Source: an uncultured Microthrixaceae bacterium
GTDB lineage: Bacteria; Actinomycetota; Acidimicrobiia; Acidimicrobiales; CAVOFX01
Direction of reading: 5' to 3'
NCBI GenBank assembly: GCA_963695115.1
Contig: CAVOFX010000002.1
Span: 4,427-68,426 of the forward strand
DNA length: 64,000 bases
Shown here: one piece after another, positions 7,067 to 56,165 of the stretch
How positions within the stretch are numbered: the stretch's first letter is position 1
How the letters are laid out: the number at the start of each line of letters is the position of its first letter
Notes under the pieces: model-generated
Database searches by the model: none
What the model was told of the DNA's origin: nothing
The model's input: the letters and a program-made list of their open reading frames with translations, nothing else
Made by a program: the position numbers and the translations under genes

Positions 7067-7639
7067 TCAGGCCGCGGCCCGCCGAGGGGGGCCGTGCCAG
7101 GCGGCAGCCAGCGCTCCGAGCGCCATGAGGCGCGCCAGCCGGCGGACCTCGGCGACCTGCGCCTCGGGCGGCAGCTCCTTCGCGCGGGCGCCGGCACCCA
7201 GGCTGAGGATCGACCCGGCACCCCCGATCGAGAGGATCGAGCCGGCCGAGCCGATCGAGAGGATCGAGCCGGCCGAGCCGATGGACAGCAGCGAGCCCGA
7301 GGAGGCGAAGGAGCCGATCGAGCCGATGGCGAGCACCGACCAGGCCGAGCCCACCGAGGCCGTCGACTTCCAGCTCAGCACCGAGAACAGAGAGCGGCCC
7401 GAGGCCACGGACGCCCGCCTCCCGACCCGGAGCAGCTGGTCGATGGTGAGCTGGACCGCGAGCGTCCGGGTGATGGTCCGGATGTCGCGCGGGCCCGCTG
7501 CTCGGCGGCGGCCAGGCGGGCGGTGCCGCTGCACCGGCCGGCGCCCTCGGGCCCGGTGACGGTCGGCTCGCTCGACCCCCGCGCCCGGTCGGCGTCGCAG
7601 CCGTTCGTCGAGGAGCAGCCGGGCTTCATCGAGATCCAC
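7067..7639 (-). CDS. hypothetical Ser/Gly/Ile/Leu-rich repeat protein (9-aa units LSIGSAGSI)
   Basis: 190-aa ORF with strong third-position GC in the repeat half. It contains an in-frame 27-bp tandem repeat. Function is unknown and the N-terminal limit is uncertain. Confidence 0.5.
   Translation of the reverse strand: MDLDEARLLLDERLRRRPGAGVERADRHRARGRRPVQRHRPPGRRRAAGPRDIRTITRTLAVQLTIDQLLRVGRRASVASGRSLFSVLSWKSTASVGSAWSVLAIGSIGSFASSGSLLSIGSAGSILSIGSAGSILSIGGAGSILSLGAGARAKELPPEAQVAEVRRLARLMALGALAAAWHGPPRRAAA
7205..7290. repeat. 27-bp tandem repeat, 2 identical units (7224-7250, 7251-7277) plus degenerate flanking copies
   Basis: ccgatcgagaggatcgagccggccgag occurs twice back to back. It encodes SIGSAGSIL repeats on the minus strand. 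Confidence 0.8.
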
Positions 7640-12225: not shown

Positions 12226-13110
12226 ATGGCTCTGGCCGAACGTCTCGCCCACCATCCGAACCCGTGGGCCGCCCCGCCGTCCGAGCTGGACCACCTGGCC
12301 TGGCGGGTCCGGCCGGTGGTCACCGCCGATCAGCAGGTCCTCCCCGTGCTGCCCCCGCTCGAGGACCTCGTACCCGGCGGCCTGCTCCGGGGCCTGGTCG
12401 TCTCCGTCGGCGGGTTGGCCGCCACCTCCCTGGCCTTGGCGGTGGCTGCAGGCCCGTCCCGGTCCGGTTCGTGGGTGGCGTCGGTGGGGATCCCCACGCT
12501 GGGCCTGGCGGCGGCCGCGGAGATCGGGGTCGACCTCTCCCGGCTGGCGGTGGTGCGCCAGCCCCCATCGGCGCAGTGGGCTCCGGTGGTGGCCGCTCTC
12601 ATCGGGGCCTTCGACCTGGTGCTGCTCCGGCCTCCGCGACGGGTGGGCCGCAGCGAGGCACGGCGCCTGGCGGCTCGGGCACGCGAGAGGGGGACGACCC
12701 TGCTGATGGCGGGCGGCAGGGAAGCGGCCTGGCCGGAGAGCCCTGACCTGGGCATGACGGTGACCGGGGTCGAGTGGCAGGGGTTGGGCCGGGGCCACGG
12801 CCACCTCAGCGCCCGCCGGGTCCGTGTCGCGTCCGAGGGCAGGGGTCGGGCCGGGCGTCCCCGCGAGGCCGAGCTGTGGCTTTCCGACGCCGACGGGCGG
12901 GTGGCTCCGGTGAGCCGGTCCGTGGTCGTCCCGTTCGACCTGTCGCAGCGCGCCGAGCCGTCGCATCGCGCCGAGCCGTCGCATCGCGCCGAGCCGTCGC
13001 ATCGCGCCGAGCCGTCGCATCGCGCCGAGCCGTCGCATCGCGCCGAGCCGTCGCATCGCGCCGAGCCGTCGCAGCGCGCCGAGCCGTCGCATCGCACCGA
13101 GTCCACATGA
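12226..13110 (+). CDS. imuA: ImuA' (actinobacterial ImuA-like mutasome accessory protein) with C-terminal (RAEPSH)8 repeat
   Basis: ...QQVLPVLPPLEDLVPGGLLRGLVVSVGG...SGSWVASVGIPTLGLAAAAEIGVDLSRLAVVRQPP..WAPVVAALIGAFDLVLLRPP is the typical ImuA' core. The SOS box lies upstream. The stop overlaps the imuB ATG (ATGA at 13107-13110). I prefer the ATG at 12226 over the track's start at 12190, which lies upstream of the LexA box and would put the box inside the coding sequence. Confidence 0.8.
   Translation: MALAERLAHHPNPWAAPPSELDHLAWRVRPVVTADQQVLPVLPPLEDLVPGGLLRGLVVSVGGLAATSLALAVAAGPSRSGSWVASVGIPTLGLAAAAEIGVDLSRLAVVRQPPSAQWAPVVAALIGAFDLVLLRPPRRVGRSEARRLAARARERGTTLLMAGGREAAWPESPDLGMTVTGVEWQGLGRGHGHLSARRVRVASEGRGRAGRPREAELWLSDADGRVAPVSRSVVVPFDLSQRAEPSHRAEPSHRAEPSHRAEPSHRAEPSHRAEPSHRAEPSQRAEPSHRTEST
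12949..13092 (+). repeat. 18-bp tandem repeat x8 (cgcgccgagccgtcgcat), in frame in imuA'
   Basis: Units fall at 12949, 12967, 12985, 13003, 13021, 13039, 13057 and 13075. Seven are identical and unit 7 ends cag instead of cat. A diverged ninth unit (13093-13110) carries the imuA' stop and the imuB start. Confidence 0.95.
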
Positions 13111-14750
13111 GCAGCGTCGCCGAGGCCCCGACCCGCATGGCGGTCGTGTGGTGCGGGGACTGGCCGGTCGTGGCCCTCGGAGCCCCTCTCGACCGCCCGG
13201 CGGCGGTCGTCCACGCCAACCGGGTGGTGGCCTGCACCCCGGCCGCTCGCACAGAGGGGGTGGCGGTGGGGCTCCGGCGGCGCGAAGCGCAGAGCCGCTG
13301 CCCCGGGATGGCCGTGCACGAGCGCGACCTGCTCGCCGAGGCCCGGGCCTTCGAGCCGGTGGCGGAGGTCGTCGAGCAGTTCACCCCCCGCTTCGAGATG
13401 ACCGTCCCCGGTTCGTGCTCTCTCCACACCAGGGGACCGTCCCGATACTTCGGTGGTGACCAGGCCCTGGCGGGTCGCATGGCCGAGAGGATCGGAGAGG
13501 TGCTGGCGGGCCGCGGCTGGTTCCGGATCGGGGTGGCCGACGGGTTCTTCGCCGCCCGCTCGGCGGCCCGGATGGCCGCTTCGGCCCCCTGCGTCATCCC
13601 GCCCGGGGAGAGCCCGGGGTTCCTGGCCCCGCTCCCGATCGGCACCCTCGAACGCCCGGGGCTCACCGACGTGATCTCCCGGTTGGGCCTGCGCACCCTC
13701 GGCGATCTGGCAGGGCTGCCCCGAGGCGACGTGATCGGGCGTTTCGGGCGCGAGGGGGAGGAGGCCCACCGTCTGGCCTCCGGCCTCGACCCGCGCCCAC
13801 CCGCCGTGGGCCCGCCGCTCGCCTCGCTCGAGGTGGCCACCGAGATCGACCCCCCGACCGAGCGGGTCGACCAGGTCGCCTTCGTCGGGAAGTCGTTGGC
13901 CGACGAGCTGCACGCCGAGCTGGGGAGGAGGGGCCTGGCCTGCATCCGGGTGCTCATCGAGGCCGAGACCGAGCACGGCGAGTGCCACCGTCGGTGGTGG
14001 AGGCACGAAGGGGCGCTCTCCTCGCCGGCGCTCGCCGACCGGGTGCGCTGGCAGCTCGAGGGTTGGTTGAACGGCCCCACCCGCCACCGCCCGACCGCCG
14101 GCGTCATCCGGCTGGCCCTCGTGCCCGACGAGGTCGTAGCGGCCACCGGACGCCAGCTCGGCTTCTGGGGGGGCGAGACCGAGGCGGCCGAGCGGGTCAC
14201 CCGTGCCCTGGCCAGGGTGGAGGGGTTGCTGGAGGCGGCGGCGGTCACCGTGCCGGAGTGGAGGGGAGGGCGGGGTCCGGCCGAGCAGGTGGATCTGGTT
14301 CCCGCCGGAACCGTCGATCTCACCGCCGACCGCACGGTCGAACGGGGAGGATCGCCTCCCATCTCTGCTTCCGCCGCCCGGGCGGTGCCTGCTCGAACCC
14401 CGCCTGCGACCGGGGGTGGGTCGGCTCCCTGGCCTGGGGTCCTGCCGGCCCCCGCTCCCGCGCTCGTGCACCCCGAACCGGTGCCGGTCGCTCTCGTGGA
14501 CGCGCGCGGCGAGCCGGTCGGGGTGAGCGGCCGGCTCGTGCTCAGCGCCCCACCTGCCCGCTTGGCGGTACGCGACGGACCGGTCGTGCCGATCGAGGCG
14601 TGGGCCGGTCCCTGGCCCGCCGACGAGAGGTGGTGGGACCCGGAGCGCCGTAGGCGTCGCGCCCGCTTCCAGGTGATCACAACCGAGGGCGCTGCCCACC
14701 TGCTCACCCTCGAAGGCGGCCGTTGGTGGCTCGAGGCCACCTATGACTGA
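13107..14750 (+). CDS. imuB: ImuB (Y-family polymerase-like mutasome subunit)
   Basis: MSSVAEAPTRMAVVWCGDWPVVA...VVACTPAARTEGVAVGLRRREAQSRCP...FEPVAEVVEQFTPRFE...FLAPLPIGTL...LGLRTLGDLAGLP. It is translationally coupled to imuA'. Confidence 0.9.
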   Translation: MSSVAEAPTRMAVVWCGDWPVVALGAPLDRPAAVVHANRVVACTPAARTEGVAVGLRRREAQSRCPGMAVHERDLLAEARAFEPVAEVVEQFTPRFEMTVPGSCSLHTRGPSRYFGGDQALAGRMAERIGEVLAGRGWFRIGVADGFFAARSAARMAASAPCVIPPGESPGFLAPLPIGTLERPGLTDVISRLGLRTLGDLAGLPRGDVIGRFGREGEEAHRLASGLDPRPPAVGPPLASLEVATEIDPPTERVDQVAFVGKSLADELHAELGRRGLACIRVLIEAETEHGECHRRWWRHEGALSSPALADRVRWQLEGWLNGPTRHRPTAGVIRLALVPDEVVAATGRQLGFWGGETEAAERVTRALARVEGLLEAAAVTVPEWRGGRGPAEQVDLVPAGTVDLTADRTVERGGSPPISASAARAVPARTPPATGGGSAPWPGVLPAPAPALVHPEPVPVALVDARGEPVGVSGRLVLSAPPARLAVRDGPVVPIEAWAGPWPADERWWDPERRRRRARFQVITTEGAAHLLTLEGGRWWLEATYD

Positions 14751-14921: not shown

Positions 14922-16688
14922 ATGGCGGGAAAGGAGTCCAGCATGGCAGGGTCGAGACCCGGAGCGACGCGGTCGCGGAGGATGTGGGCAGTAGGAGCTG
15001 TGGCGGTGCTGGCGCTCCTCACAGCAGGGGCATCCAGCTGCGGTGACGACGAGGGCGGGGGTGGCGGGTCGGAGCAGACCACCGTCACCGAGAAGCCCGT
15101 GGCCGGCGGCAAGGTCGTGATGGGCATCGCGGGGGAGACCCCCACCGGCTTCAACCCGACCAGCAGCCAGTTCAGCCCCTCCAGCAACAACGTCAACAAG
15201 GCCATCTACGACCCGATCGCCGTGCTCGACCCGGACGGCATCGCTCAGCCGTACCTGGTCGAGAACTTCGAGCCCAACGAGGACTTCACCGAGTGGGTCT
15301 TCACCCTGCGGGAGGGCGTCACCTTCCACAACGGCGATCCCCTCGACGCCGAGGTCTTCGCGACCTTCTTGAAGGCGGTGCAGGAGGGTCTGCTCACCTC
15401 GATCGCGCTCCGTCCCATGGACGCGGTGCTGAACCTGGCCGAGGGCCAGGAGGCCGCCAGGCCCATGGTCGAGAGCGGCGACATGAGTCAGGAGGATTGG
15501 GAGCTCATGAGCCGCCAGGTCGCGGTCACCACCTCGATCCCGTGGGCAACCCTGCCGGCGTTCTTCAGCACCCAGCCCGGCTTCGTCGCCCACCCCGACT
15601 ACACGGGCACGGTCGACAGCGAGCCCACGGCGGAGGAGCCGATCGGGACCGGCCCGTTCGTCTTCGACGACTGGGTGCTCGACGACCACCTCACCGCGGT
15701 ACGCAACCCCGACTACTGGCGCACCGACGCCGACGGGAACCAGCTCCCGTACCTCGACGAGGTCGAGTTCAGGCCCCTGCCCGACGACCAGACCCGGCTG
15801 GCCTCCCTCGACACGGGCGACATCGACATGATGCACACGAACTCCGCGGAGCTGCAGATGCAGGCGGGCGCGGACGGATCAGGTGTGTCAGAAGGTCAGT
15901 ACGTGGTCTTCGACGGCGGTGCCGGCGACGAGATGACCGTGATCCTGAACACAGCCGAGGAACCGCTCTCGGATGTCGAGGTCAGGAGAGCGCTCGCCCT
16001 GGCGACGGACAAGCAGCTCATAGTGGACGGTCTGTACGACGGGTTCTTCGAGGTCGCGAACGCGCCTTACGTGCCGGACGACTTCTGGTACACGGACCCC
16101 GAGTGGCCGGAGCCGGACCCTGATGCAGCGAGTCAGATGGTCGAGGAGTGGGAGGCCGAGAACGGCGACCTGGTGATCGACCTCACCATCATCTCCATCC
16201 CCGAGAACCAGCGACTGGCCCAGACGCTGGAGGAGCAGTGGTCCGCTGTGGGGATCGACGTGAACATCAAGGCGATCGACGAGGGCTCGGTCGCAGCGTC
16301 CTTGCTCGAGGGCGACTACGACGGGATCATGGTGGCGTTCTTCCCGTACTCGGACCCGGACGAGCACTACCACTTCTGGGATCCGGAGAACATCGGTGAC
16401 ACCGGGGTCCTCAGCGTGAACTTCTCCCGCTACACCAGCGAGATCACGAAGGAGAACCTCCAGGCAGCTCGCGGGATCGACGACCGCGAGGAGCGCAAGG
16501 CGCTCTACGCCGACGTCTGGAAGGACTGGGCGGAGAACGTCCCTTACCTCTTCCTGTACCACCAGAAGTGGATCGTGATCGCCCGGGACAACGTGCATGG
16601 CATCGAGTCGGTCACGTTCCCCGACGGGAGCCCGGCTTCACCGATGTCGTGGGGCTCGATCTTCCTCACACAGGCCTGGGTGACCTGA
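14922..16688 (+). CDS. ABC transporter substrate-binding lipoprotein, family 5 (peptide/nickel type), orphan
   Basis: An AGGAGG-like RBS precedes the ATG at 14922. The signal/lipobox is [14 protein letters not shown]. Family-5 motifs are present: KVVMGIAGE...[31 protein letters not shown]...[27 protein letters not shown]. There is no permease or ATPase gene adjacent. Confidence 0.85.
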
Positions 16689-16705
16689 TCGAGCAGCAGC
16701 ACTGG

Positions 16706-16744
16706 GAGAGGCCCCCCGCTCCGGCGGGGGGCCTCTCTTCTTTT
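16706..16744 (+). terminator. rho-independent terminator after the SBP gene
   Basis: A 13-bp perfect stem GAGAGGCCCCCCG (16706-16718) pairs with CGGGGGGCCTCTC (16725-16737). The loop is 6 nt and is followed by TTCTTTT. Confidence 0.85.
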
Positions 16745-16797
16745 CCCGGGGAGGGTTCCTCCCGTTCCCGGGTCGGGCACCGGTGCTCCCTGGACCG

Positions 16798-16813
16798 ACG
16801 AACAGGTGTTCGA
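16798..16813 (+). promoter_or_regulatory. LexA (SOS) box upstream of dnaE2
   Basis: ACGAACAGGTGTTCGA lies 15 nt upstream of the dnaE2 ATG. Its core CGAACAGGTGTTCGATAC is identical over 18 nt to the imuA' box region. Confidence 0.8.
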
Positions 16814-16827
16814 TACCCTGCGTCCCC

Positions 16828-19800
16828 ATGGGCTGGCGCAACCCCCCGATCCCCTGGTCCGAGCTGGAGCACCGGCTCTCCGACCGGGGCGTCCTCCCGG
16901 GCGGTCTGCCCGGCGAGGGTGGTGACTCACCGGCCTGGTCCCGTCGCCGTGCCCCCTACCAGCCTCCGGAGGGGATGGAGCATCCCCGATCCGATCAGGG
17001 CCCGGGGTACGCCGAGCTGCACTGCCACTCCAACTTCAGCTTCCTCGACGGCGCCTCCCACCCCGAGGAGCTGGCCGAGGAGGCGGCCCGGCTCGGGCTC
17101 CGGGCGCTGGCCCTCACCGATCACGACGGCCTGTACGGCGTGGTGCGCTTCGCCGAGGCCGCCGCGGCGTCTGGGTCTGCCCACGGTGTTCGGGGCCGAG
17201 CTCACCCTGGGCCGCACGCGGTCCCAGGCCGGGGTCGCCGACCCGGATGGCGATCACCTGCTGGTGCTGGCCCGGGATCCCGAGGGCTACGCCCGGCTGA
17301 GCCGGGCCATCAGCGAGGCTCAGCTCCGGGGAGGCAAGGGGGCACCCCGGTGCTCTCTGGGCGATCTGGCGGAGCTGGCTTCGCGCGACGGCGAAGCCGG
17401 CCACTGGGTGGTGCTCACCGGGTGCCGCAAGGGCACGGTGCCCCGAACCCTGCTCGAAGCCGGGCCGGCCGCGGCGGGTCGCGAGCTGCACCGCCTGATC
17501 GACGCCTTCGGCCGCGGGAGCGTGGTCGTCGAGCTCTGGGATCACGGCGAGCCGCTCGACTCGGCCCGCAACGACGCCCTGGGCGAGCTGGCGGTGAGGG
17601 CCGGGGTCGAGGTGGTGGCGACCAACGACGTCCACTACGCCACCCCTGGCCGCCGGCGCCTGGCCACCGCGCTGGCGGCGGTGAGGGCCCGTCGCTCCCT
17701 CGACGAGATGGACGGGTGGCTGCCCGCGGCGGGTGGGGCTCACCTGAGGTCGGGGGCCGAGCAGGCGGCACGCTTCGCCCGCTACCCCGGCGTGGTCGAG
17801 CGGGCAGCCGAGCTGGCCCTGGAGTGCGCGTTCGACCTCCAGCTGGTGGCTCCCGAGCTGCCGCCGTTCCCCTGCCCGCCGGGTCACCACGAGATGTCGT
17901 GGCTGCGGGAGCTGACCGAACGCGGAGCGCGGACACGGTACGGCCCGCGGGGAGCCGAGAAGGTGCCGGGCGCGTACGCGCAGATCGACCACGAGCTCCG
18001 GATCATCGAGCAGCTCGGGTTCCCCGGCTACTTCCTCATCGTCTGGGACATCGTCGAGTTCTGTCGCCACAACGACATCTACTGCCAGGGACGGGGGTCG
18101 GCCGCCAACTCGGCGGTCTGCTACGCCCTCGGCATCACGAACGCCGACGCGGTGGGTCTCGGGCTGCTCTTCGAGCGCTTCCTCTCACCCGAGCGCGACG
18201 GCCCACCCGACATCGACCTCGACATCGAGAGCGGTCGTCGTGAGGAGGTCATCCAGCACGTGTACGAGAAGCACGGCCGCCACAACGCTGCGCAGGTGTG
18301 CAACGTCGTCACCTACCGCGCCCGCTCGGCGGTGCGTGACATGGCCAAGGCCCTCGGGTACTCGACCGGCCAGCAGGACGCCTTCGCGAAGCAGGTCGAC
18401 CGCTGGGGGCCGCTGAGCGAGGTGGGTGAGGTCCCTCCCGACGTGTTGGAGCTGGCCACCCAGCTCGAGCACGCGCCGCGCCACCTCGGCATCCACTCGG
18501 GCGGCATGGTGCTCTGCGACCGGCCGGTGATAGAGGTCTGCCCCGTCGAGTGGGCCTCGATGGAGGACCGCAGCGTCCTGCAGTGGGACAAGGACGACTG
18601 CGCCGCCGTCGGCCTGGTGAAGTTCGACCTGCTCGGGTTGGGGATGCTCAGCGCTCTGCACGGCGCCGTGGACCTCATCCGCGCCCACCACGGCGTCGAG
18701 GTCGACCTTGCCACCCTCCCCCAGGAGGACAGCGTGTACGACATGCTCTGCGCCGCCGACTCCATCGGGGTGTTCCAGGTGGAGAGCAGGGCCCAGATGG
18801 CCACGCTCCCTCGCCTCAGGCCCCGGTGCTTCTACGACCTGGTCGTGGAGGTGGCGCTCATCCGCCCCGGTCCCATCCAGGGCGGGTCGGTCCACCCCTA
18901 CATACGCCGTCGCAACGGCCAGGAACCGGTCACCTACCTCCACCCCCTGCTCGAGCCGTCGCTCGCCAAGACGCTCGGCGTGCCGCTCTTCCAGGAGCAG
19001 CTCATGCAGATGGCGATCGACGTCGCCGGCTTCACCGCCGGCGAGGCCGACCAGCTCCGCCAGGCGATGGGGGCGAAGCGCAGCCGCGACCGCATGGAGA
19101 GCCTGAGAGCGCGGTTCTACGACGGCATGGCCGAGAGGGGGATCATCGGCGAGGTGGCCGACGTCATCTGGGAGAAGCTGGCGGCGTTCGCCAACTTCGG
19201 GTTCCCCGAGAGCCACTCGGTCTCGTTCGCCTACCTCGTGTACTCCTCGGCCTGGATCAAGCTCCACCATCCGGCGGCGTTCTGCGCGGCCCTGCTCAAC
19301 GCCCAGCCGATGGGGTTCTACTCGCCCCACACCCTCACCCAGGACGCGTGGCGCCACGGTGTAGAGGTGCGCACCCCCGACCTGAACCGATCCGGGGCGG
19401 CCGCGACCCTGGAGTGGGACGGTGTGGACAGGGATGGCGTGAACGGTGACGGGGCAGGCTCCCCTCAGCCAGCGGTGAGGTTGGGGCTCTCCTCGGTGCG
19501 CACGGTGGGCACCGACCTGGCAGAGCGCATCGAGGCCGAGCGGGCGAGGAGCGGTCCGTACGTCTCCATGGAGGACCTGAAGCGGCGGGTCGAGGTGAAG
19601 CTCGACACCCTCGAGGCTCTGGCCACCGCCGGGGCGTTCGGGTGCTTCGACGCCGCCCCGGGCGAGTCGCTGAGCAGGAGGGAGGCGCTCTGGGGGGCGG
19701 GGGCGGTGGCCCAGGCCGGAGCCGATCGGCTGGCCGGCATCGTCACCGGCACGGTCGCACCTGCACTGCCGCAGATGAGACCCGAGGAGGTGGCCCGCGC

Positions 19801-20221
19801 CGACCTCTGGGCCACCGGGGTGTCACCCGACGGCCACCCGACCCGTTTCGTCCGCCGTCTCCTCGACGAGCGGGGCGTGGTGACCTCGGAGGGACTGAAG
19901 ACCCTCGACCACGGGGACAAGGTGCTGGTGGCCGGGGTGGTCACCCATCGGCAGCGACCGGCGACCGCCGGAGGCACGACCTTCCTCAACCTCGAGGACG
20001 AGACCGGCCTGGTGAACGTGGTGGTGTCGCGGGGCTGCTGGACCCGTTACGCCCAACTGGCCCGATCGGCGCCGGCGCTCTTGGTGCGGGGGCGTCTCGA
20101 GCGGGCCGGGGGAGTGGTGAACGTGGTGGCCGAGAAGCTCGAGCTGCTGCCGGTCGGTGGGACACGCCGGCGCGACGCTTCGCCGGGCGAGCCGGTGCTG
20201 CGCTCACGCGACTTCCGTTGA
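16828..20221 (+). pseudogene. dnaE2: error-prone DNA polymerase III alpha subunit DnaE2, apparent +1 frameshift near 17165-17170
   Basis: The N-terminus [18 protein letters not shown]...[55 protein letters not shown] is in the ORF 16783 frame. The sequence then continues as [13 protein letters not shown]...[19 protein letters not shown]...[22 protein letters not shown]... to SRDFR* in the ORF 16568..20221 frame. Confidence 0.9.
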
Positions 20222-21717: not shown

Positions 21718-22587
21718 GTGAGGGATGTGCGACGACACCTGCGCCCCGGCGCCGTGGCCCTCGTGGCGGCGGTGCTGGCGTTCGCGGGCTGCGGTGACGC
21801 CGACGAGGTCGAGTCTGCCCAGAGCACCACCGCCCCCACGACCACCTCCGCGCCCGAGAGCACGACGACGACCACGACCGCCCCGGAGCCCGCCACCGCT
21901 CCGACCAACCCTCCCAAGCCCGACGTCTGCGCACCCGACATGGGAAGCACCCTGCAGGCCCAATACGCCTTCTACCCCTATCCGGACTTCCCCTACCCGC
22001 CCGAGGGCTGGGAGGAGCCGGACCGCGACGTCTTCGACTGGGACGGAGACGGCACCACGGACACCCTCGTCCTCGCCGACGACACCGTCACCCTCACCTG
22101 GGCCACGGGCCAGGTCGTGGTCACCGGCGTGCAGACCGACTACCTCTCCCGCCCCGCGGTCGACGACGACGGGAGGGAGTTCCACTTCTACCCGAACACC
22201 TACGGCGAGGCGGAGCTGGCGGCCAGGCACATCCCCGCGGCGGTGGGCGACGTGACGGGCGACGGGCTCGGCGACCTCGTCGTGTTCCACGGCGGCCACA
22301 CAGCGGTGATGATCGGCCAGGGCGCCGCCACACCGTCTCGGACCCTCGCCTTCGACGACGTGGGGCGCACCACCCTCGGCTGGAGGTCTCCGCCGGTGCG
22401 TTTGGCCGGAGGGGATCGCGTCGTCGACCAAGACGACTTCTTGTTCCCGGCACCAGTCGGTGACCTGGCGGTCCTGTGGGATGTCAATGGGGATGGTGCC
22501 AGGGAGTTCTCGGTCAGCAGATTCGAGGAGCGCAGTGTTCATTCGGCCTACTTGGCCGGGGTGCTGTGCGACCTACCGCCCGGGTAG
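21718..22587 (+). CDS. FG-GAP/VCBS-like repeat lipoprotein, paralog 1
   Basis: A GGAGG lies 7 nt upstream of the GTG at 21718. The lipobox is LAFAGCG, followed by a Thr/Pro-rich linker and DxDGDG-type motifs (FDWDGDGTTD, GDVTGDGLGDLVV, WDVNGDGAREF). This is the last ~290 aa of track ORF 19642..22587. Confidence 0.8.
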   Translation: MRDVRRHLRPGAVALVAAVLAFAGCGDADEVESAQSTTAPTTTSAPESTTTTTTAPEPATAPTNPPKPDVCAPDMGSTLQAQYAFYPYPDFPYPPEGWEEPDRDVFDWDGDGTTDTLVLADDTVTLTWATGQVVVTGVQTDYLSRPAVDDDGREFHFYPNTYGEAELAARHIPAAVGDVTGDGLGDLVVFHGGHTAVMIGQGAATPSRTLAFDDVGRTTLGWRSPPVRLAGGDRVVDQDDFLFPAPVGDLAVLWDVNGDGAREFSVSRFEERSVHSAYLAGVLCDLPPG

Positions 22588-22662
22588 GGATCCAGAGACC
22601 CCGGGCCCCCCGGGCCGGCCCGTCGCTCACCACTACGCTCGGCGGCGATCGGGGGTCGACCC

Positions 22663-23538
22663 ATGGGAGATCTGCGCACACACCTGCTGAGCCAACACCT
22701 GCGCCCCGGCGCCGTGGCCCTCGTGGCGGCGGTGCTGGCGTTCGCGGGCTGCGGTGACGCCGACGAGGTCGAGTCGGCGAAGAGCAGCACCACGCTCGCC
22801 ACGACCACCTCGGTGCCCGAGAGCACGACGACGACCACGACCGCCCCGGAGCCCGCGACCCCGCCGACCAACCCCCCCAAGCCCGACGTCTGCGCACCCG
22901 ACATGGGTACAACCCGGATGTTCAAGTATGCGTATCCGGGCCATGGGGACTTCCCCTACCCGCCCGAGGGCTGGGAGGAGCCGGACCGTGACGTCTTCGA
23001 TTGGGACGGCGACGGCACCACGGACACCCTCGCCCTCGCCGACGACACCGTCACCCTCACCTGGGCCACGGGCCAGGTCGTGGTCACCGGCGTGCAGACC
23101 GACTACCTCTCCCGCCCCGCGGTCGACGACGACGGAGAGGAGTACCGGGTTCACGAGAGATCGGACGGTACGGTCCCGACGCACATCCCCGCGGCGGTGG
23201 GCGACGTCACGGGCGACGGGCTCGCCGACCTCGTCGTGTTCCACGGCGGCCACACAGCGGTGATGATCGGCCAGGGCGCCGCCACACCGTCGGAGACCCT
23301 CGCCTTCGACGACGTGGGGCGCACCACCCTCGGCTGGAGGTCTCCGCCTTTCAGGCCGCCTGGTTTGGACGGAGTTGTCACCGAAGAGGATCGGCTCACC
23401 CCCGCGCCGGTCGGTGACGTGGCGGTCTTGTGGGACGCGGACGGAGACGGCGCGAACGAGCTCTCGATCACGCGGTGGCATGATCGTTCCGGGCCTAGCA
23501 TCATCCACTTCGCGGGAGTCCCCTGCGACCTGCCCTAG
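22663..23538 (+). CDS. FG-GAP/VCBS-like repeat lipoprotein, paralog 2
   Basis: 291 aa with the same signal peptide, lipobox, linker and core as paralog 1. Long stretches are about 97-100% identical at nucleotide level, offset 960-963 bp, and are interrupted by divergent patches. Confidence 0.85.
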   Translation: MGDLRTHLLSQHLRPGAVALVAAVLAFAGCGDADEVESAKSSTTLATTTSVPESTTTTTTAPEPATPPTNPPKPDVCAPDMGTTRMFKYAYPGHGDFPYPPEGWEEPDRDVFDWDGDGTTDTLALADDTVTLTWATGQVVVTGVQTDYLSRPAVDDDGEEYRVHERSDGTVPTHIPAAVGDVTGDGLADLVVFHGGHTAVMIGQGAATPSETLAFDDVGRTTLGWRSPPFRPPGLDGVVTEEDRLTPAPVGDVAVLWDADGDGANELSITRWHDRSGPSIIHFAGVPCDLP

Positions 23539-50072: not shown

Positions 50073-50912
50073 TCAGCTGACCGCTGGGGAGACCTCTACC
50101 AGCTCCGACTCGGCGCCCACGGTGAGCCCGTTGGCGCGGGCGGGATCCCCTCCGAACGCGGGGCAGTACGCGTGGAACGAGCACCAGTCGCAGAGCTTCG
50201 AGGGTCGGGGTCGGAAGTCCTCGCTCTCGCACGCGCGCACCACGGCCTTCCAGATTGCCCTCACCCTGGTCTCCAGCCCGCGCGTCGACTGGTCGGTCGG
50301 CTGGCAGACGATCGCGGTGGGTTGGCCGAGGTACAGCAGCTGTATTCGGGCGGGGCGTTCTCCGAAGGCCTGCTCGCAGAGGTAGGAGTAGAAGTGGACG
50401 CCACCGAGCCGACTCTGTTCGAAGCGCGCACCCGGCGCCCGGCCGGTCTTGTAGTCGGTCACCACGAGCCGGCCGCTCTCGTCCAGCTCGAGTCGGTCGA
50501 TGATGCCGCGGAGGTGGAGATCTCCGACCGCCGCCTCGAGCATCAGCTCGAGGCCGATCGGATTCACTGCGGCTGGGTCCTCGAGCTCGAAGTACTTCCT
50601 GACCAGGTCCTCGGCGTCGTTGACGAAGCGGGCCTCGTCCTCGGCGGACAGGCCGAGCCCTGTGAACTCGGGGTGGTCCTGGATCTCGTCGACGGCCCTG
50701 GCCAGCGAGGTGAGTGCCTGCGGGAGCGTGCGCGCCTCGGCCGGTTCGCAGAAGAGGAGCTCCAGCGCTCGGTGCACCAGGGAGCCCTTCGTCGCTGCGG
50801 CGGAAGGGGGCTCGGGGAGCTTGTCGATCGCCGAGAACCGGAACGCAAGGGCGCAGTCCTTGAACGCCGAGACCTTGCTGGGTGAGAGCGTGCCGGGCGG
50901 TGCGAGGGCCAT
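50073..50912 (-). CDS. PD-(D/E)XK (RecB/Cas4-like) family nuclease with C-terminal Cys cluster
   Basis: LSPSKVSAFKDCALAFRF...GSLVHRALE...GIIDRLELDESGRLVVTDYKTG...QLLYL...CDWCSFHAYCPAF. Confidence 0.8.
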   Translation of the reverse strand: MALAPPGTLSPSKVSAFKDCALAFRFSAIDKLPEPPSAAATKGSLVHRALELLFCEPAEARTLPQALTSLARAVDEIQDHPEFTGLGLSAEDEARFVNDAEDLVRKYFELEDPAAVNPIGLELMLEAAVGDLHLRGIIDRLELDESGRLVVTDYKTGRAPGARFEQSRLGGVHFYSYLCEQAFGERPARIQLLYLGQPTAIVCQPTDQSTRGLETRVRAIWKAVVRACESEDFRPRPSKLCDWCSFHAYCPAFGGDPARANGLTVGAESELVEVSPAVS

Positions 50913-50977: not shown

Positions 50978-51694
50978 TCAGCCCTGACGGTCGGCCAGCT
51001 GGGCCTCGAGCCCCCTGATCACCACCTCCACAGCCTGGGCGAAGACCTGCTCCCCCGAGCCGGCGGAGTCGAGGTGCTCCACGTAGGAGCGGGCGTTCGG
51101 GACCGAGTCGCTCAACACGTCGTCCAGGCGGTGCCAGCCCTGCTTGACCCGCTCCTCGACCGACTTGGGAGGTTCGCCCTCCTTTCGCCCGACGAGCAGC
51201 TGGTAGGCCTCGAAGTGCGAGCGGCTGATCGCCACCGAGGCCAGGACGTTCAGCGCCTCGGCGGCCTCGACCTCACCGAAACCCGCGTCACGTAGCGCGC
51301 CCACGCCGTACTCGATGAGGGGTAGGGCACTCGGCGGGTAGTTCTGATAGGTGTAGAGCTGGTCAGCGATGCCCGGGTAGTCGGTGAGCACCGAGTGCAC
51401 CGCCCAGGAGAGCCGCCTCAGTCGCTCCTGCCACGCGCCTTCCGGACCCGGGAGCTCGATGAGGGAGAGCACCCGATCGGTGACCGCGTCGATGAGCTCG
51501 TCCTTGCTCTTGAAGTACCAGTAGATCGCCATCGAGGTGACGCCGAGCTCGTCACCGAGCTTCCGCATGCTCATGCCGTCGAGGCCGAACCGCCGTGTGA
51601 GCGTGAGCGCGGCGTCGACGATCTGAGACCTCTCCAGGAGCGGTCCGTCCGGCCGGGCACCGCCCGGTCTCCTGCGGCTCTCCGTGCCGGTCAT
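50978..51694 (-). CDS. TetR family transcriptional regulator
   Basis: MTGTESRRR...IVDAALTLTRRFGLDGMSMRKLGDELGVTSMAIYWYFKSKDELI. This is the tail of track ORF 50978..51988. Confidence 0.85.
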   Translation of the reverse strand: MTGTESRRRPGGARPDGPLLERSQIVDAALTLTRRFGLDGMSMRKLGDELGVTSMAIYWYFKSKDELIDAVTDRVLSLIELPGPEGAWQERLRRLSWAVHSVLTDYPGIADQLYTYQNYPPSALPLIEYGVGALRDAGFGEVEAAEALNVLASVAISRSHFEAYQLLVGRKEGEPPKSVEERVKQGWHRLDDVLSDSVPNARSYVEHLDSAGSGEQVFAQAVEVVIRGLEAQLADRQG

Positions 51695-51746
51695 CGTCCC
51701 TCCAGCTTCGAGAAGCCTTCTCGCCCGTAGAGGTTGCCACACACCA

Positions 51747-52595
51747 TCAGGGTCGAGCGTGCTTGTCGGTGCGGCCCGCGAAGGCGGCCCGGATCGAGGA
51801 CGCGATCTCGTCCGGAGCCTCCAGCGGGCCGAAGTGGCCCAGGTGCTCTCTGGCCTCCAGGTGTCCGTTGGGTAGGGCGGCGGCCACCGACGCGGCCATC
51901 GACGCCGGACCAGGGTCGATCCGCCCACGCACCACGGTGACGGGGCAGCTGACCAGGTGGAGGTGGTCGAATGCGTCGTGCTGCCCACCCATCTCGTACA
52001 CCCTCGCCTCGTGCTCCGGGTGGCACTTCAGGAGCACCGATCCGTCCGGTTGTTCGGAGAACCCGCCTCTCACGTACGCCCAGATGCTCTCCTCGGGCAT
52101 CCCACCGAACGGCGGCTTGGAAGCGAAGTTCTCGAAGGCGGCGTCCCACGAGGGGAAGCCGGTGCGCCGCCGGCGCGCGCCCGCGGCCATGAAGTTCTCT
52201 CCATCGGTCGGGATCCGGGCCGGGAAGACCACCGGCTCGAACACCCAGAGTGCATCGAACGTCCCCGGCCGGCGCTGCTCGGCCATGAGCAGTGCCGCTC
52301 CACCCTTGGAGTGGCCGGCCGCGACCAGTCCCGGCGCGAGCTCCAGGGCGTCGACGACCGCGAGGACGTCGTCGGCGAACCCCTGCCATTCGAAGGTGTG
52401 GTCGGGGGGAGCTGTGGAGTCGCCGTGGCCCCTGAGATCGGGGGCCAGGCAGTGCCACTCCTGCAGGCGGGCGGCGACCGGTTCCCAGCAACGGCCGTGC
52501 AGGCCGGTGGCGTGGGCCAGCAGCAGGGGCGGTCCCTCGCCATCCAGGTCGTGGAGTGCCAGCTCGACCCCGTCGGTGCTGCTGATGGGCGACAC
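51747..52595 (-). CDS. alpha/beta hydrolase
   Basis: VSPISSTDGVELALHDLDGEGPPLLLAHATGLHGRCWEPVA...APDLRGHGDS...VAAGHSKGGAALL...HLGHFGPLE. The GTG at 52595 is my choice. The track ORF extends to 52877 only by reading through the 72-bp repeats. Confidence 0.75.
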   Translation of the reverse strand: MSPISSTDGVELALHDLDGEGPPLLLAHATGLHGRCWEPVAARLQEWHCLAPDLRGHGDSTAPPDHTFEWQGFADDVLAVVDALELAPGLVAAGHSKGGAALLMAEQRRPGTFDALWVFEPVVFPARIPTDGENFMAAGARRRRTGFPSWDAAFENFASKPPFGGMPEESIWAYVRGGFSEQPDGSVLLKCHPEHEARVYEMGGQHDAFDHLHLVSCPVTVVRGRIDPGPASMAASVAAALPNGHLEAREHLGHFGPLEAPDEIASSIRAAFAGRTDKHARP

Positions 52596-52643
52596 GGGGG
52601 GAATGGTGGCAGGCCCGGGCAGTGGAAGCGAAGCCCCGACATC

Positions 52644-52894
52644 GCATCGACCCACCCCCACCCAGCGAACCGTCGGTTCAGACGCCAGGATTTCCGGCGC
52701 CTCAGCCGGAAGTTCGCATCGACCCACCCCCTGCCAGCGAACCGTCGGTTCAGACGCCAGGATTTCCGGCGCCTCAGCCGGAAGTTCGCATCGACCCACC
52801 CCCTGCCAGCGAACCGTCGGTTCAGACGCCAGGATTTCCGGCGCCTCAGGCGGAAGTTCGCAACGACGCACCCCCACCCAGCGAACCGTCGGTT
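52644..52894. repeat. 72-bp tandem repeat array, left arm (3 full units + 35-bp partial)
   Basis: Units are 52644-52715, 52716-52787 and 52788-52859, with a partial at 52860-52894. The consensus is gcatcgacccaccccctgccagcgaaccgtcggttcagacgccaggatttccggcgcctcagccggaagttc. Confidence 0.95.
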
Positions 52895-52934
52895 GTCCAG
52901 GGGGTTCCGGGTATCGGAGGACGGGGCGGTCGCG

Positions 52935-53867
52935 TCACGGCCGGCGTCGCGTGGCGAGCCCGGCGAGCTCTCGGCTCAGGGTCCTGGTGGCCACGTCCAG
53001 GAGCAGCTCCAGCCCGCTGTCGACGACGACGAAGGCGTCCGAGCTGATGCCGTTCTCGAGGATGATCCGATGCGGGGAGAGGCGGACCGTCGCTTCGGTG
53101 TCCTCTGCGCGCACGCCGATCGCGAGTGGACCCGGCAACCTGAGCACCACCGCCCGCACAGCGGCGTTGGCCAGGTACTGCGGCACCGCGTCGGCCAGCA
53201 TGTGGACCACGAGGTTGGCCTCTTCCCGCGGCGGTCGGTCTATCGGCGGGAGGGCAGGTGCAAGGCGGGTCGCGAGACGCATCGCCCCCGCCGCCAGGAA
53301 CAGCGGCGTGGCCAGAGGTGCGGTGGCGGAGACGAGGAAGGTCTCCCAGACCGCGGCCGGGAAGTCGAAGGGCCGGCGACCCCGCAGGCGGGCCCACAGC
53401 CCGTCAGCCGTGTTGCCTGCCAGCGAGGAGAGCTCTGCCACAGCGACCGTTGCCCGGACCGATCGGACGGCCCGGGGCGGCAGCACCTCCTGCAGAGCGG
53501 TGGCGTCGACGGGCCCACCGGCCAGTGCGGAGTCGCGGGCGAAGTCCAGCAGCACGGGGAGCGCCTCGTCGATCTCCCCTTCGCCGAGGAAGTCCCTCCA
53601 GGCACCGTGGATCCAGGCGGTGTAACGGCAGCCGTTCACCTCTGTCACGGCCATGACGATCTGCTCCCGCGAGCGTGGCGAGAGACTCCGGCTGCCGGGC
53701 AGGACGCCGTCGAGGAGTCCACCGGCGCTCGAGCCGAGCTCTGCCAGCCACGGCACGAGGCGCTGGGGAGTCGCCGTAGGCCGGGCGAACAGGTCCACGG
53801 CCCAAGCGTACGCCCGGACTCGTTCGGTGCCGGGGAGCAGGTGATCCGGCGTGTCGGCCCGGTCCAC
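52935..53867 (-). CDS. AhpD/carboxymuconolactone decarboxylase-like domain protein with SCP2-like C-terminal region
   Basis: 310 aa. The segment ...REQIVMAVTEVNGCRYTAWIHGAW... resembles the CMD/AhpD-like helix motif, with the second Cys replaced. The C-terminal segment ...PLAIGVRAEDTEATVRLSPHRIILENGISSDAFVVVDSGLELLLDV resembles an SCP2 sterol-binding fold. Both domain calls come from pattern memory only. Confidence 0.65.
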   Translation of the reverse strand: MDRADTPDHLLPGTERVRAYAWAVDLFARPTATPQRLVPWLAELGSSAGGLLDGVLPGSRSLSPRSREQIVMAVTEVNGCRYTAWIHGAWRDFLGEGEIDEALPVLLDFARDSALAGGPVDATALQEVLPPRAVRSVRATVAVAELSSLAGNTADGLWARLRGRRPFDFPAAVWETFLVSATAPLATPLFLAAGAMRLATRLAPALPPIDRPPREEANLVVHMLADAVPQYLANAAVRAVVLRLPGPLAIGVRAEDTEATVRLSPHRIILENGISSDAFVVVDSGLELLLDVATRTLSRELAGLATRRRP

Positions 53868-53885
53868 CTGCCCGGGCGGAACCTC

Positions 53886-54105
53886 CCACCGACGGTTGCG
53901 AACTTCCGCCTGAGGCGCCGGAAATCCTGCCGTCTGAACCGACGGTTCGCTGGCAGGGGGTGGGTCGATGCGAACTTCCGCCTGAGGCGCCGGAGATCCT
54001 GGCGCCTGAACCGACGGTTCGCTGGGTGGGGGTGGGTCGATGCGAACTTCCGCCTGAGGCGCTGGAAATCCTGGCGCCTGAACCGACGGTTCGCTGGGAG
54101 GGGGT
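53886..54105. repeat. 72-bp tandem repeat array, right arm (inverted orientation; 14-bp partial + 2 full units + truncated third)
   Basis: Units are 53900-53971, 53972-54043 and 54044-~54105. Unit 53900-53971 differs from the reverse complement of 52716-52787 at 2 of 72 positions (hand alignment). Confidence 0.95.
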
Positions 54106-54129
54106 CGAGCCGGCAGGTCAGTCGGTGCG

Positions 54130-55329
54130 TCAGCGGAAGGCGTTGAGGCCGGTGATCGTCTGGCCCAGGACCAGCTGGTGCACCTCGTTGGTTCCCTCGT
54201 AGGTGTACACGGACTCGAGGTTGTTCATGTGGCGGATGATCGGGTACTCGAGCGTGATCCCGTTCGCTCCGAGCACGGAGCGCGCCTCACGCGCAACCCA
54301 CAGCGCCTCGCGGACGTTGTCGAGCTTCCCGAAGCTGACCTGCGCGGGGCTGAGCCGGCCCTCGTCCTTCAGCCGTCCGAGGTGCAGCGCGAGGAGGGTC
54401 CCCTTCTCGACGCGGAGCATCATCTCGACCAGCTTGCGCTGCGTGAGCTGGAAGCTCGCTATCGGCTGTCCGAACTGCTCGCGGTCGAGCGAGTAGCGGA
54501 GGGCGGTCTCGTAGCAGGTGCGGGCCGCACCCATCGCCCCCCAGAGGATCCCGAAGCGGGCCTCGTTCAGGCACGACAGCGGCCCGCGCATCGACGAGAC
54601 CTCGGGTAGGCGCGCCGACTCGGGCACCCGCACGTCGTCCATGACCAGCTCTGACGTCACCGAGGCCCGCAGCGAGAGCTTGTGCGGGATGTCGGTGGCC
54701 GCGAAGCCGGGGGAGTCGGTCGGGACGATGAAGCCGGCGTAGCTCCCCGCCTCGTCGGGCGTGCGGGCCCAGACGACCGCCAGGTCCGCGACGCTGCCGT
54801 TGGTGATCCACATCTTGGTGCCGTTCAACACCCAGTCGCCGCCGTCCCGCCTGGCGTGGGTGCGCATGCCGGCGGGATCGCTCCCCGAGTCGGGCTCGGT
54901 GAGTCCGAAGCAGCCGATCGCCTCTCCCGAGGCCATCTGCGGGAGCCACTCCTGCTTCTGGTCCTCCGACCCGAAGCGCCAGATCGGGAACATCGCCAGC
55001 GAGCCCTGGACGGAGACGAACGAGCGGGCCCCGCTGTCGGCGGCTTCCAGCTCGAGACAGGCCAGCCCGTACTGCACCGCGCTGGAGCCCGCGCAGCCGT
55101 AGCCGTCGAGGTGCATGCCGAGCAGCCCGAGCTCACCCATCTCCGTGGCGAGCTCGCGGGGGAACACCCCGGCCTCGAACCACCCGGCGACCCCGGGGAG
55201 GATCCGATCCGTCACGTAGCGGTGGACGGTGTCACGGAGCATCAGCTCGTCGTCCGAGAGCAGCGAGCCGATCGCCAGGAGGTCCAGGGGATCGGGATCG
55301 GCGTGCGTGTGCTCTCGTGGCTCGCTCAT
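54130..55329 (-). CDS. acyl-CoA dehydrogenase (glutaryl-CoA dehydrogenase-like)
   Basis: MSEPREHTHADPDPLDLLAIGSLLSDDE...GCFGLTEPDSGSDPAGMRTHARRDGGDWVLNGTKMWITNG...YTYEGTNEVHQLVLGQTITG. I chose the ATG at 55329. Confidence 0.9.
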   Translation of the reverse strand: MSEPREHTHADPDPLDLLAIGSLLSDDELMLRDTVHRYVTDRILPGVAGWFEAGVFPRELATEMGELGLLGMHLDGYGCAGSSAVQYGLACLELEAADSGARSFVSVQGSLAMFPIWRFGSEDQKQEWLPQMASGEAIGCFGLTEPDSGSDPAGMRTHARRDGGDWVLNGTKMWITNGSVADLAVVWARTPDEAGSYAGFIVPTDSPGFAATDIPHKLSLRASVTSELVMDDVRVPESARLPEVSSMRGPLSCLNEARFGILWGAMGAARTCYETALRYSLDREQFGQPIASFQLTQRKLVEMMLRVEKGTLLALHLGRLKDEGRLSPAQVSFGKLDNVREALWVAREARSVLGANGITLEYPIIRHMNNLESVYTYEGTNEVHQLVLGQTITGLNAFR

Positions 55330-55382
55330 CGGGCTCAGCGTAGGGGGCTGCTGCCGGAGCGTGCCGATACGCTGGCGGCTCG

Positions 55383-56165
55383 ATGGGCAGGGACCGCGGC
55401 GATCGCTGGGGTGAGGGTGCGAGCGAGCTCGACGCCGCGAGCCCATACCTCGCGCTTGCCAGAGAGATCCAGCGCGAGGTGGAAGCCGTCGTCGAGGATC
55501 CGGAGGCGGATGGCGAGGCCCTCGTGGAGGCGATCAAGGCGGTACCGGCGCGAGAGCGGTCTCGCATGATCAAGACCGCCTTCGAGAGGCTCCCCGCCGA
55601 GCGACAGTGGGAGATCCTCGAGGCAGCGTTCGGTGACGACGAGATCCGCTCTCATCTGGAACGGGAACGGGCCGCTCACCTCGATGCTCTACGACGATCC
55701 TCCGACCTGGACGCGCTCGTGACCCGTGCCCGCGCCACCAGCCACCTCGATCTGCGCGAGCTACCCAGCACAGTCCAGCTCGCGGTCGGCTTGTTCAGGC
55801 CCTCGGACGTTCGAGCGGCGCTCCGGAAGGGCCATCTCTCAGACAGCTGTGCGCGGATTCTCGTCGTCCGTCCCGTGGATCGGGAGGGCGGGGTCCGGGT
55901 CATCGATGACTCCTTCAACCCCAGGGGTGGCTTGTTCGTGACTGCTGAGTACGACGAGGCCACATGGAGCAGGGAGCAGATCCCGAGCCACACGGTGGTG
56001 CGGCTCGGCTCCATCGCGGGGCACGGTGGCGATCGCCAGCTCGAGCCCTTGCTCTACGCAGGGGCCCGGGTCGATGTCGAGATCAGCGGTGAGATCATCG
56101 AGGGACAGCTCCACTTGGGCTTCGCTATGTTGGGTGACCGGGATGTCTTCAGCGGGCTCGGGTGA
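55383..56165 (+). CDS. conserved hypothetical protein (260 aa)
   Basis: The ORF is intact with a coding-like composition (…ERLPAERQWEILEAAFGDDEIRSHLERERAAHLDAL…VIDDSFNPRGGLFVTAEYDEATW…). Confidence 0.6.
   Translation: MGRDRGDRWGEGASELDAASPYLALAREIQREVEAVVEDPEADGEALVEAIKAVPARERSRMIKTAFERLPAERQWEILEAAFGDDEIRSHLERERAAHLDALRRSSDLDALVTRARATSHLDLRELPSTVQLAVGLFRPSDVRAALRKGHLSDSCARILVVRPVDREGGVRVIDDSFNPRGGLFVTAEYDEATWSREQIPSHTVVRLGSIAGHGGDRQLEPLLYAGARVDVEISGEIIEGQLHLGFAMLGDRDVFSGLG

Follow-up and report, generated by a model that had tools for sequence, protein, structure and literature searches.

What places two inverted arrays of the same tandem repeat on either side of a single gene, within a block of genes that all point the same way? 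The question arises in a 64,000-nt stretch of contig CAVOFX010000002.1 (positions 4,427 to 68,426, hereafter "the window") from an uncultured Microthrixaceae bacterium. Here, a minus-strand gene for an AhpD-like protein lies between those of an acyl-CoA dehydrogenase (ACAD) and an alpha/beta hydrolase, and arrays of a 72-nt unit occupy the spacers on both of its sides (Table 1). An initial annotation, made from the letters alone, had offered four readings of this architecture: intergenic repeats like the mycobacterial interspersed repetitive units (MIRUs) or the repetitive extragenic palindromic (REP) units, a non-autonomous cassette with a passenger gene, an invertible segment, and operator arrays for a nearby TetR regulator. 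The first of these is the best supported, given that relatives hold the gene at the same site without repeats and that a diverged array exists at another locus.

We thus favor, with a probability of about 0.6, a MIRU/REP-like minisatellite of the intercistronic spacers, whose block occurs twice, in inverted orientation, on either side of a resident gene and is probably selfish or neutral. The block is a 3.5-unit minisatellite (72 nt per unit), each unit bearing the palindrome GAACCGNCGGTTC and local hairpins, and would belong to a rare dispersed intergenic repeat family of the same kind as the mycobacterial MIRUs and the palindromic repeats of the REP and bacterial interspersed mosaic element (BIME) type. 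It would have come to fill, in opposite orientations, both intercistronic spacers of the AhpD/SCP2-like gene within a block of ACAD, AhpD-like, hydrolase and TetR genes. The AhpD-like gene is not cargo, no enzyme to move or flip the block was found among the likely genes of the window, and a selfish or neutral repeat would be its most likely status. If the four genes share a transcript, the arms would pair into a duplex of ~218 bp looping out the AhpD-like cistron, a natural substrate for RNase III that could also hinder the adjacent translation starts.

Table 1. Features of the array locus (window coordinates; for the arrays, strand denotes the orientation of the unit).
Feature	Position	Strand	Description
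Left array	52642..52894	+	Three full 72-nt units and a 37-nt partial fourth; spacer between AhpD-like stop and hydrolase start
Right array	53886..54110	-	Block of the left array in opposite orientation; spacer between ACAD stop and AhpD-like start
13-nt palindrome GAACCGNCGGTTC	52667-52679, 52739-52751, 52811-52823, 52883-52895 (1 mismatch), 53936-53948, 54008-54020, 54080-54092		n = 7
Predicted long-range RNA duplex (span)	52609..54128	-	Outermost pair 54128/52609, innermost 53897/52862; AhpD-like cistron in loop
ACAD, upstream gene	54130..55446	-	Pfam Acyl-CoA_dh_N/M/1; likely true start near 55332
AhpD/CMD-superfamily protein with SCP2-like C-terminal domain	52935..53867	-	310-aa open reading frame (ORF) from GTG 53867
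Alpha/beta hydrolase, downstream gene	51747..52595	-	Pfam Abhydrolase_6/1; start GTG 52595 by homology to L004
TetR-family regulator, last of the co-directional block	50978..51694	-	Pfam TetR_N + TetR_C_1

Two inverted arrays of a 72-nt unit

The inverted 72-nt arrays around one gene are real, being recovered both by Tandem Repeats Finder and by an inverted-repeat search. The limits of the left array come from these two programs, from nhmmer with a profile of the unit (E-values 1e-48 and 3e-34) and from alignment of the arms, and those of the right array from Tandem Repeats Finder, direct and inverted repeat searches, the arm alignment and nhmmer with the unit profile. Tandem Repeats Finder returns a period of 72 nt on both sides, with 3.5 copies and 96% matches on the left (over exactly the span in Table 1) and 2.9 copies and 94% matches on the right (53897-54105); a degenerate tail of the left array may reach about 52912. 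As inverted arms, 52654-52864 and 53895-54105 pair over 211 nt at 95% complementarity across a gap of 1030 nt, and a shift of register by one unit yields 149 nt at 97%. In the unit pair that the initial annotation had singled out, the reverse complement of 52716-52787 indeed differs from 53900-53971 at exactly 2 of 72 positions.

The arrays approach the flanking genes closely. Their inner ends stand 40 nt from the AhpD-like stop (52935) and 19 nt from its GTG (53867), in agreement with the distances first noted. The outer end of the left arm had been thought to abut the hydrolase start; with the start that homology indicates (GTG 52595), it lies 46 nt away.

For the palindrome of the unit, a DNA pattern search of the 64 kb finds seven sites (0.12 expected by chance), every one within the arrays; the innermost left copy is the one with a mismatch. 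When up to two mismatches were allowed, no further site was found near the operon, including upstream of ACAD, and the unit profile (nhmmer) found no copy in the 64 kb beyond the two arrays. Hairpins of single units are not exceptional when compared to shuffled sequences (z from -0.5 to -2.9). The unit had also been said to stay open in one frame; five of its six frames are open instead, so that an open frame through the unit carries no information. The arrays matter for annotation, in which they create spurious ORFs and false N-terminal extensions, as well as for assembly quality control.

Separately, we observed that the AhpD-like gene and the hydrolase share one reading frame, split by a single TGA (52935-52937; 52595-52934) and open through the whole left array. 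The same relation is seen in two of the related loci described below (L004, 1089-1124; L012, 2597-2605), and not in a third (L013) with its called starts; it may be a coincidence.

One block in two orientations

Aligned in unit orientation, both arms begin with TCG(CATCG)ACCC, run through three full units, and break off within the palindrome of the next (...ACCGTCGGT(T)). The right arm had been described as the reverse complement of the left, with a 14-bp partial, two full units and a truncated third; it contains three units and a partial fourth, and is the left arm with three stretches missing: 5 nt from the outer end, 4 nt from the outermost unit and 22 nt from the innermost partial unit. 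In addition to these three indels, the arms differ by 10 substitutions, with identical uninterrupted runs of 30-50 bp and the innermost unit pair being most alike (1 difference). Independent expansion is not expected to give the same number of units and the same end phases, which implies that the block was either copied whole or homogenized between arms by gene conversion. This in-register correspondence bears out the earlier view of a single ancestral block, and indicates that the arms are two copies of one ~250-nt non-coding block. One arm may have been copied from the other recently (about 5% divergence), or gene conversion may be keeping the two alike. As to timing, the AhpD-like gene is 79% identical at the nucleotide level between the window and the related locus L004, as against 95% between the arms, which suggests that the duplication or homogenization is younger than the split from L004.

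Neither end of the block (TCGCATCGACCC... and ...GAACCGTCGGTT) is an inverted copy of the other, i.e., there are no terminal inverted repeats, and no target-site duplication was found in the flanks of either block. Similarity between the arms is not significant beyond a degenerate tail of ~11 nt into the inner flanks.

A native gene and inserted repeats

Five related loci retain the surroundings of the AhpD-like gene. L004 (AhpD-like protein 80% identical) carries the end of ACAD, the AhpD-like gene, the hydrolase and TetR with repeat-free spacers of ~85 and ~30 nt, and in L005 (78% identical) ACAD directly precedes the AhpD-like gene, again with no repeat. The AhpD-like gene adjoins hydrolase(-TetR) in L018 and L012 (69 and 67% identical), and L013 (62% identical) continues onward through PDDEXK, PAP2, DSBA, WS/DGAT, luciferase-like, short-chain dehydrogenase and methyltransferase/UDG genes; spacers in these three measure 3-50 nt. 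The window matches the gene order of L013 (without DSBA) for more than 12 kb downstream. Searches of all five loci with the unit profile (nhmmer) gave no match, and the synteny comparison proposed in the initial annotation, which was to look for an "empty site" with hydrolase and ACAD side by side, found the gene present in relatives and no such site.

Conserved synteny and the repeat-free spacers of relatives together imply that the AhpD-like gene is native and that each array is an insertion of ~220-250 nt into a pre-existing short spacer. By this comparison, the repeat blocks appear to have entered both spacers in this lineage only. Just upstream of the hydrolase start and outside the left array, the string CCTGCCA(A/C)CATT..CCCCC is kept in both the window and L004 (p ~0.006).

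What lies upstream of the AhpD-like gene differs from locus to locus (window 53868-54129 vs. L012 1-1740, L018 1-820 and L013 900-2160). In the window, L004 and L005 the next gene is ACAD itself; L012, L018 and L014 have a SnoaL-like gene in between (plus an amidohydrolase in L012), and an unannotated 400-aa gene is found there in L013. Such varying upstream neighbors suggest that the spacer receiving the right array is a rearrangement-prone junction.

A further arrangement is found in L014-L017 (Logan runs SRR33696244-296; AhpD-like protein 63% identical), where the SnoaL and AhpD-like block is turned around with respect to hydrolase-TetR-PDDEXK-PAP2, the divergent starts being separated by 18 nt (e.g., L014 7405-8923). 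All four contigs stop 62-65 nt past the end of the AhpD-like gene, suggesting that a repeat or a variable junction lies at that point, and no unit-like sequence or inverted repeat was detected at the L014-L017 junctions. An origin of the unit from native spacer sequence, or remnants of it in these inverted relatives, was considered from the strings GGAACCCCC..AACCG and CGGTTC.CTG.C and rejected (shuffle p 0.3-0.9; no nhmmer match).

Distribution of the repeat family

To follow the unit beyond the window, its invariant core (the 20-mer GCGAACCGTCGGTTCAGRCG) was scanned for exact matches in species genomes, JGI metagenomes and IMG/VR. The 185,579 species genomes contained 3 matches, the JGI metagenomes had 6, and IMG/VR had none. 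No match extends past ~21-29 nt, and those inspected sit in unrelated contexts; all are isolated chance matches. No match to the unit was obtained by blastn against plasmids and phages, no Rfam family matched it at gathering or permissive thresholds, and a literature search on the palindrome returned nothing relevant. At the protein level, the repeat peptide RCELPAEAPEILASEPTVRW had no match among 5.8 billion proteins, even at E ≤ 10.

One search did lead to another array. The joined translations of the five open frames, compared to 1.84 billion protein representatives, matched exactly one protein, P0100 (E-value 1.5e-5), a 226-aa spurious ORF on a 637,497-bp NCBI/ENA contig; the locus studied here is on a different contig, of 633,780 bp. 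The last 53 residues of P0100 (RTELPAETTGIPSPEPTVRWGVGLGRNFRLRRRVSRRLNRRFDGAWAWG) correspond to two consecutive diverged units read in two frames, which gives a period of 71 nt. Stretches encoding GAACTTCCG and GAACCGACGGTTC are kept (EPTVRW/LNRRF for GAACCGACGGTTC), and the palindrome is the best-conserved part of the array; the other 173 residues have no match in the window and none in Pfam. This protein route is insensitive, as it misses both window arrays (no called protein contains them), so the single match is a lower bound. With three arrays known so far (two in the window and that of P0100), the repeat family appears to be dispersed but rare. The initial annotation would have regarded the repeats as ordinary REP/MIRU-like noise if the unit proved to be widely dispersed and relatives had the gene without repeats at the same site: the relatives conform fully, and the dispersal in part.

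The window is as poor in candidate mobility enzymes as first stated. Among ~50 likely genes, picked by third-position G+C and scanned against Pfam, there was no transposase, integrase, invertase/recombinase or Y1/RAYT-like domain, a negative that is not absolute, several ORFs being without any match. The genes scanned have ordinary chromosomal functions, and the PD-(D/E)XK nuclease at 50073-50912 belongs to the synteny conserved in relatives without repeats.

Relation to known repeat systems

Among described systems, the closest in kind are the MIRUs, which in M. tuberculosis H37Rv occupy 41 loci as tandem repeats of 46-101 bp and whose first example came from within an operon (PMC3914561). 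The two have in common an actinobacterial host, GC-rich tandem units and arrays of few copies (here, 3.5 and ~3 copies of a 72-nt unit). Both lie in intergenic spacers (here between co-directional genes, where the spacers of relatives measure ~30-85 nt), and both families occur at more than one locus. From the work of Supply and colleagues (in 1997 and 2000), MIRUs are said to keep one orientation to the flanking genes and to contain small ORFs that overlap the neighboring stop and start codons. In contrast, our two arrays are opposite to each other within one co-directional gene block, their unit has a perfect 13-nt palindrome, and three arrays are known as against 41 loci. The likeness is one of kind and not of family, and we claim no sequence relationship.

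Palindromic units of the REP/BIME type (reviewed in PMC2229807) offer a second comparison, through extragenic units that contain a palindrome and lie between the genes of an operon. The units described here are distinct from these in being 72 nt long and arranged head-to-tail within an array, with a palindrome of 13 nt, at two places in 64 kb and rarely in public data. REP and BIME sequences are short palindromic extragenic units, often clustered and in alternating orientation, which are located between operon genes and have effects on mRNA. A REP unit measures ~20-40 nt and typically exists in hundreds of copies with a cognate RAYT (REP-associated tyrosine transposase) gene, unlike the situation here, in which no Y1/RAYT-like domain was found in the genes scanned. 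By the tests run, the structure is a member of neither the MIRU nor the REP/BIME group.

In possible mode of action, the arms recall the Correia elements of Neisseria, which place double-stranded RNA in mRNAs that is bound by RNase III and either cleaved or protected (PMC2649163). Shared features would be non-coding repeats co-transcribed with their neighbors and inverted repeats that form double-stranded RNA (here a prediction). Correia elements are, however, single units of 100-155 bp, each of which carries terminal inverted repeats and a TA duplication, whereas the partners here are two arrays 1 kb apart, without terminal inverted repeats or duplication. Likewise, the hallmarks of miniature inverted-repeat transposable elements or of cassettes bounded by terminal inverted repeats (the repeats themselves, a target-site duplication, an empty site) are all absent. 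The fim and hin switches also have a short DNA segment bracketed by inverted repeats, but with repeats of ~9-30 bp, an adjacent dedicated recombinase and usually a flipped promoter, as opposed to 211-nt tandem-array arms, a whole conserved gene inside and no recombinase found in the window.

Other classes were considered and rejected: integron attC sites, which are in direct orientation rather than inverted and in tandem (and no integrase is found in the window), and CRISPR, iteron/centromere and diversity-generating-retroelement arrays, on architecture and the absence of cognate genes.

Weight of the intergenic-repeat interpretation

Several points weigh against a MIRU/REP-like block of selfish or neutral character. 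Only one further array is known, solely through a protein translation (P0100), and the copy count and enzyme search within the source genome cover the 64-kb window. An in-register pair of inverted arrays around a single gene is no described habit of MIRUs or REPs, which calls for an extra event, be it a local inverted duplication, two insertions of one block or gene conversion. The neutrality of the block would be judged from a single genome; no second assembly of the species was found, and P0001 counts one member on one contig. Finally, co-transcription of the four minus-strand genes is suggested by their shared orientation and the short spacers of the relatives, and no sigma-70-type promoter or intrinsic terminator consensus was found in the arm-gene region to speak either way. 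What the analysis shows is the anatomy, the identity of the two blocks, their absence from relatives, the rarity in public data, the further diverged array and the thermodynamic preference for the duplex; co-transcription, RNase III cleavage if any, neutrality and the mechanism of copying are inferred.

If this interpretation is true, the block would represent an intergenic minisatellite family that is very rare and has not been described before, in an actinobacterial lineage that has been little studied, and a clean case of a block copied in inverted orientation across a gene.

A predicted RNA duplex and alternative explanations

For the minus strand of 52630-54120, ViennaRNA predicts a minimum-free-energy structure in which the two arms pair with each other and the gene is looped out. 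When the two spacers are cofolded, 218 pairs form between them, 5 of which are G-U, and unbroken runs reach 50 bp; the energy is -539 kcal/mol compared to -304 apart (-121 and -183 singly), a gain in stability of 235 kcal/mol. It would be tempting to see in this a functional RNA device, in which the duplex is cut by RNase III or masks the start regions, so that expression of the AhpD-like and hydrolase cistrons is uncoupled from, or tuned against, that of ACAD and TetR. Both arms are in intercistronic spacers, 19-46 nt from start codons, and the processing stems that flank rRNAs offer one precedent. Another is the action of RNase III on Correia-element hairpins in mRNAs (PMC2649163). However, any inverted repeat within one transcript is expected to fold in this way, so the fold is no evidence of selection, and we treat the duplex as a predicted consequence of the repeats. 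Moreover, the closest relatives run the same operon without arms, and the 5' arm would be made ~1 kb ahead of the 3' arm, whose partner may by then be kinetically trapped in stable local folds (-121 kcal/mol). We therefore hold such a device to be rather unlikely. Wider interest would attach to the ~218-bp duplex around a cistron only if its processing, or flipping of the segment, were demonstrated.

A broader form of this idea would have blocks preferentially land, or be retained, as inverted pairs around single cistrons, where they act as an RNase III-processed double-stranded RNA clamp or as a flip switch that needs no recombinase. If true, this would amount to repeat-borne rewiring of operon expression in uncultured Acidimicrobiia-like actinobacteria. 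We consider it quite improbable; with a single example to go by, the in-register inverted pairing more probably arose by accident, through local copying, than as a device.

Flipping could also be considered by itself, with homologous recombination between the 211-nt arms inverting the AhpD-like gene and thereby switching it off in the operon. Runs of 30-50 bp identity are sufficient for RecA-type recombination, and the arms have such runs at 95% identity overall; the inverted block of L014-L017 additionally indicates that this junction has been inverted at least once in evolution. Set against this, no invertase or recombinase domain was found in the likely genes scanned across the 64 kb, the gene stands in its ancestral orientation in the assembly, no unit-like sequence or inverted repeat is seen at the junctions of the inverted relatives, and a 5% divergence that includes indels argues against frequent exchange between the arms. 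An invertible segment is thus decidedly improbable.

The regular recurrence of GAACCGNCGGTTC every 72 bp might instead mark arrays of binding sites, for the adjacent TetR or another DNA-binding protein, that flank and possibly loop the gene. Each unit has a perfect 13-nt palindrome at fixed spacing, a TetR gene is part of the same gene block, and in the P0100 array nothing is conserved better than the palindrome. Yet the TetR orthologue of L004 is 85% identical, and nearly identical in its N-terminal DNA-binding region, in a locus without the palindrome: L004 and other relatives have no match to it at ≤1 mismatch, and their 2-mismatch matches are isolated. Nor is there a near-match upstream of ACAD or elsewhere near the operon, and GAGAAGNCTTCTC, common to the window and L004 just upstream of tetR, is a better operator candidate. 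The operator arrays proposed initially thus find no support, and we regard them as very improbable.

The palindrome GAGAAGNCTTCTC, of the form GAGAAG(C/G)CTTCTC, is perfect and stands ~20 nt upstream of the tetR start in both loci (window form GAGAAGCCTTCTC, 51710-51722; L004 1995-2007). It may be a TetR autoregulatory operator or an RNA hairpin.

An assembly artefact, in the form of a fold-back or strand-switch error at palindromes, might be suspected from the palindrome in the unit and from a source that may be a metagenome-assembled genome. Such errors would yield identical arms and mirrored flanks, whereas here 10 substitutions and three indels separate the arms, the gene in the loop is intact, conserved and in its ancestral orientation, and both outer flanks are syntenic, which makes an error of this kind scarcely credible. 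As for a non-autonomous mobile cassette, in which terminal inverted arrays would have carried a passenger gene into the operon, nothing but the inverted-repeat geometry speaks for it, and it is refuted by a conserved synteny (extending with L013 over >12 kb downstream) in which repeat-free relatives hold the AhpD-like gene between the same neighbors, each block is inserted into a pre-existing spacer, and neither an empty site, a target-site duplication nor a compositional break is found.

Genes of the block

Homologues support the AhpD/CMD-like part of the initial description of the bracketed gene, while its own matches are weak. Among 99 homologues of the protein, some pass the Pfam CMD gathering score and some are named "AhpD family alkylhydroperoxidase" by JGI; the protein itself has weak CMD/AhpD model scores. 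Its AlphaFold2 model (pLDDT 89.5) combines a helical N-terminal part with an alpha/beta C-terminal domain, and Foldseek matches of this model in the PDB are all weak (best E-value 0.085, none ≤0.001), with AhpD-like 2gmy and SCP2/UbiJ at the domain level. The AhpD/CMD plus SCP2-like description thus seems reasonable, if weakly supported. Most homologues are ~286 aa long, which suggests that the true start may lie up to ~66 nt inside the annotated one.

The hydrolase is identical to its L004 orthologue at 233 of 283 aligned positions. G+C content stays at ~70% along the whole window, the locus showing no break in composition, and ARAGORN found no tRNA. The closest named relatives are Acidimicrobiales metagenome-assembled genomes.

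Other repeats in the window

Three further repeats lie elsewhere in the window. An 18-nt tandem repeat (GTCGCATCGCGCCGAGCC; 12942-13101, 8.9 copies, 97%) is located at or just upstream of the 5' end of an ImuB-like ORF (IMS domain, 12774-14750), which is followed by another gene (16400-20221), possibly DnaE2-like, that encodes DNA polymerase III alpha-subunit domains. The GTCGCATCGCGCCGAGCC array would be a minisatellite heading a mutagenesis cassette. A tandem duplication of ~960 bp at 21728-23450, with pieces 88-96% identical, covers ORFs with a match to FG-GAP-like repeats, and probably reflects a recent gene or domain duplication. The last is a 27-nt tandem repeat at 7205-7325 (4.5 copies, 78% matches), with a sub-period of 9 nt.

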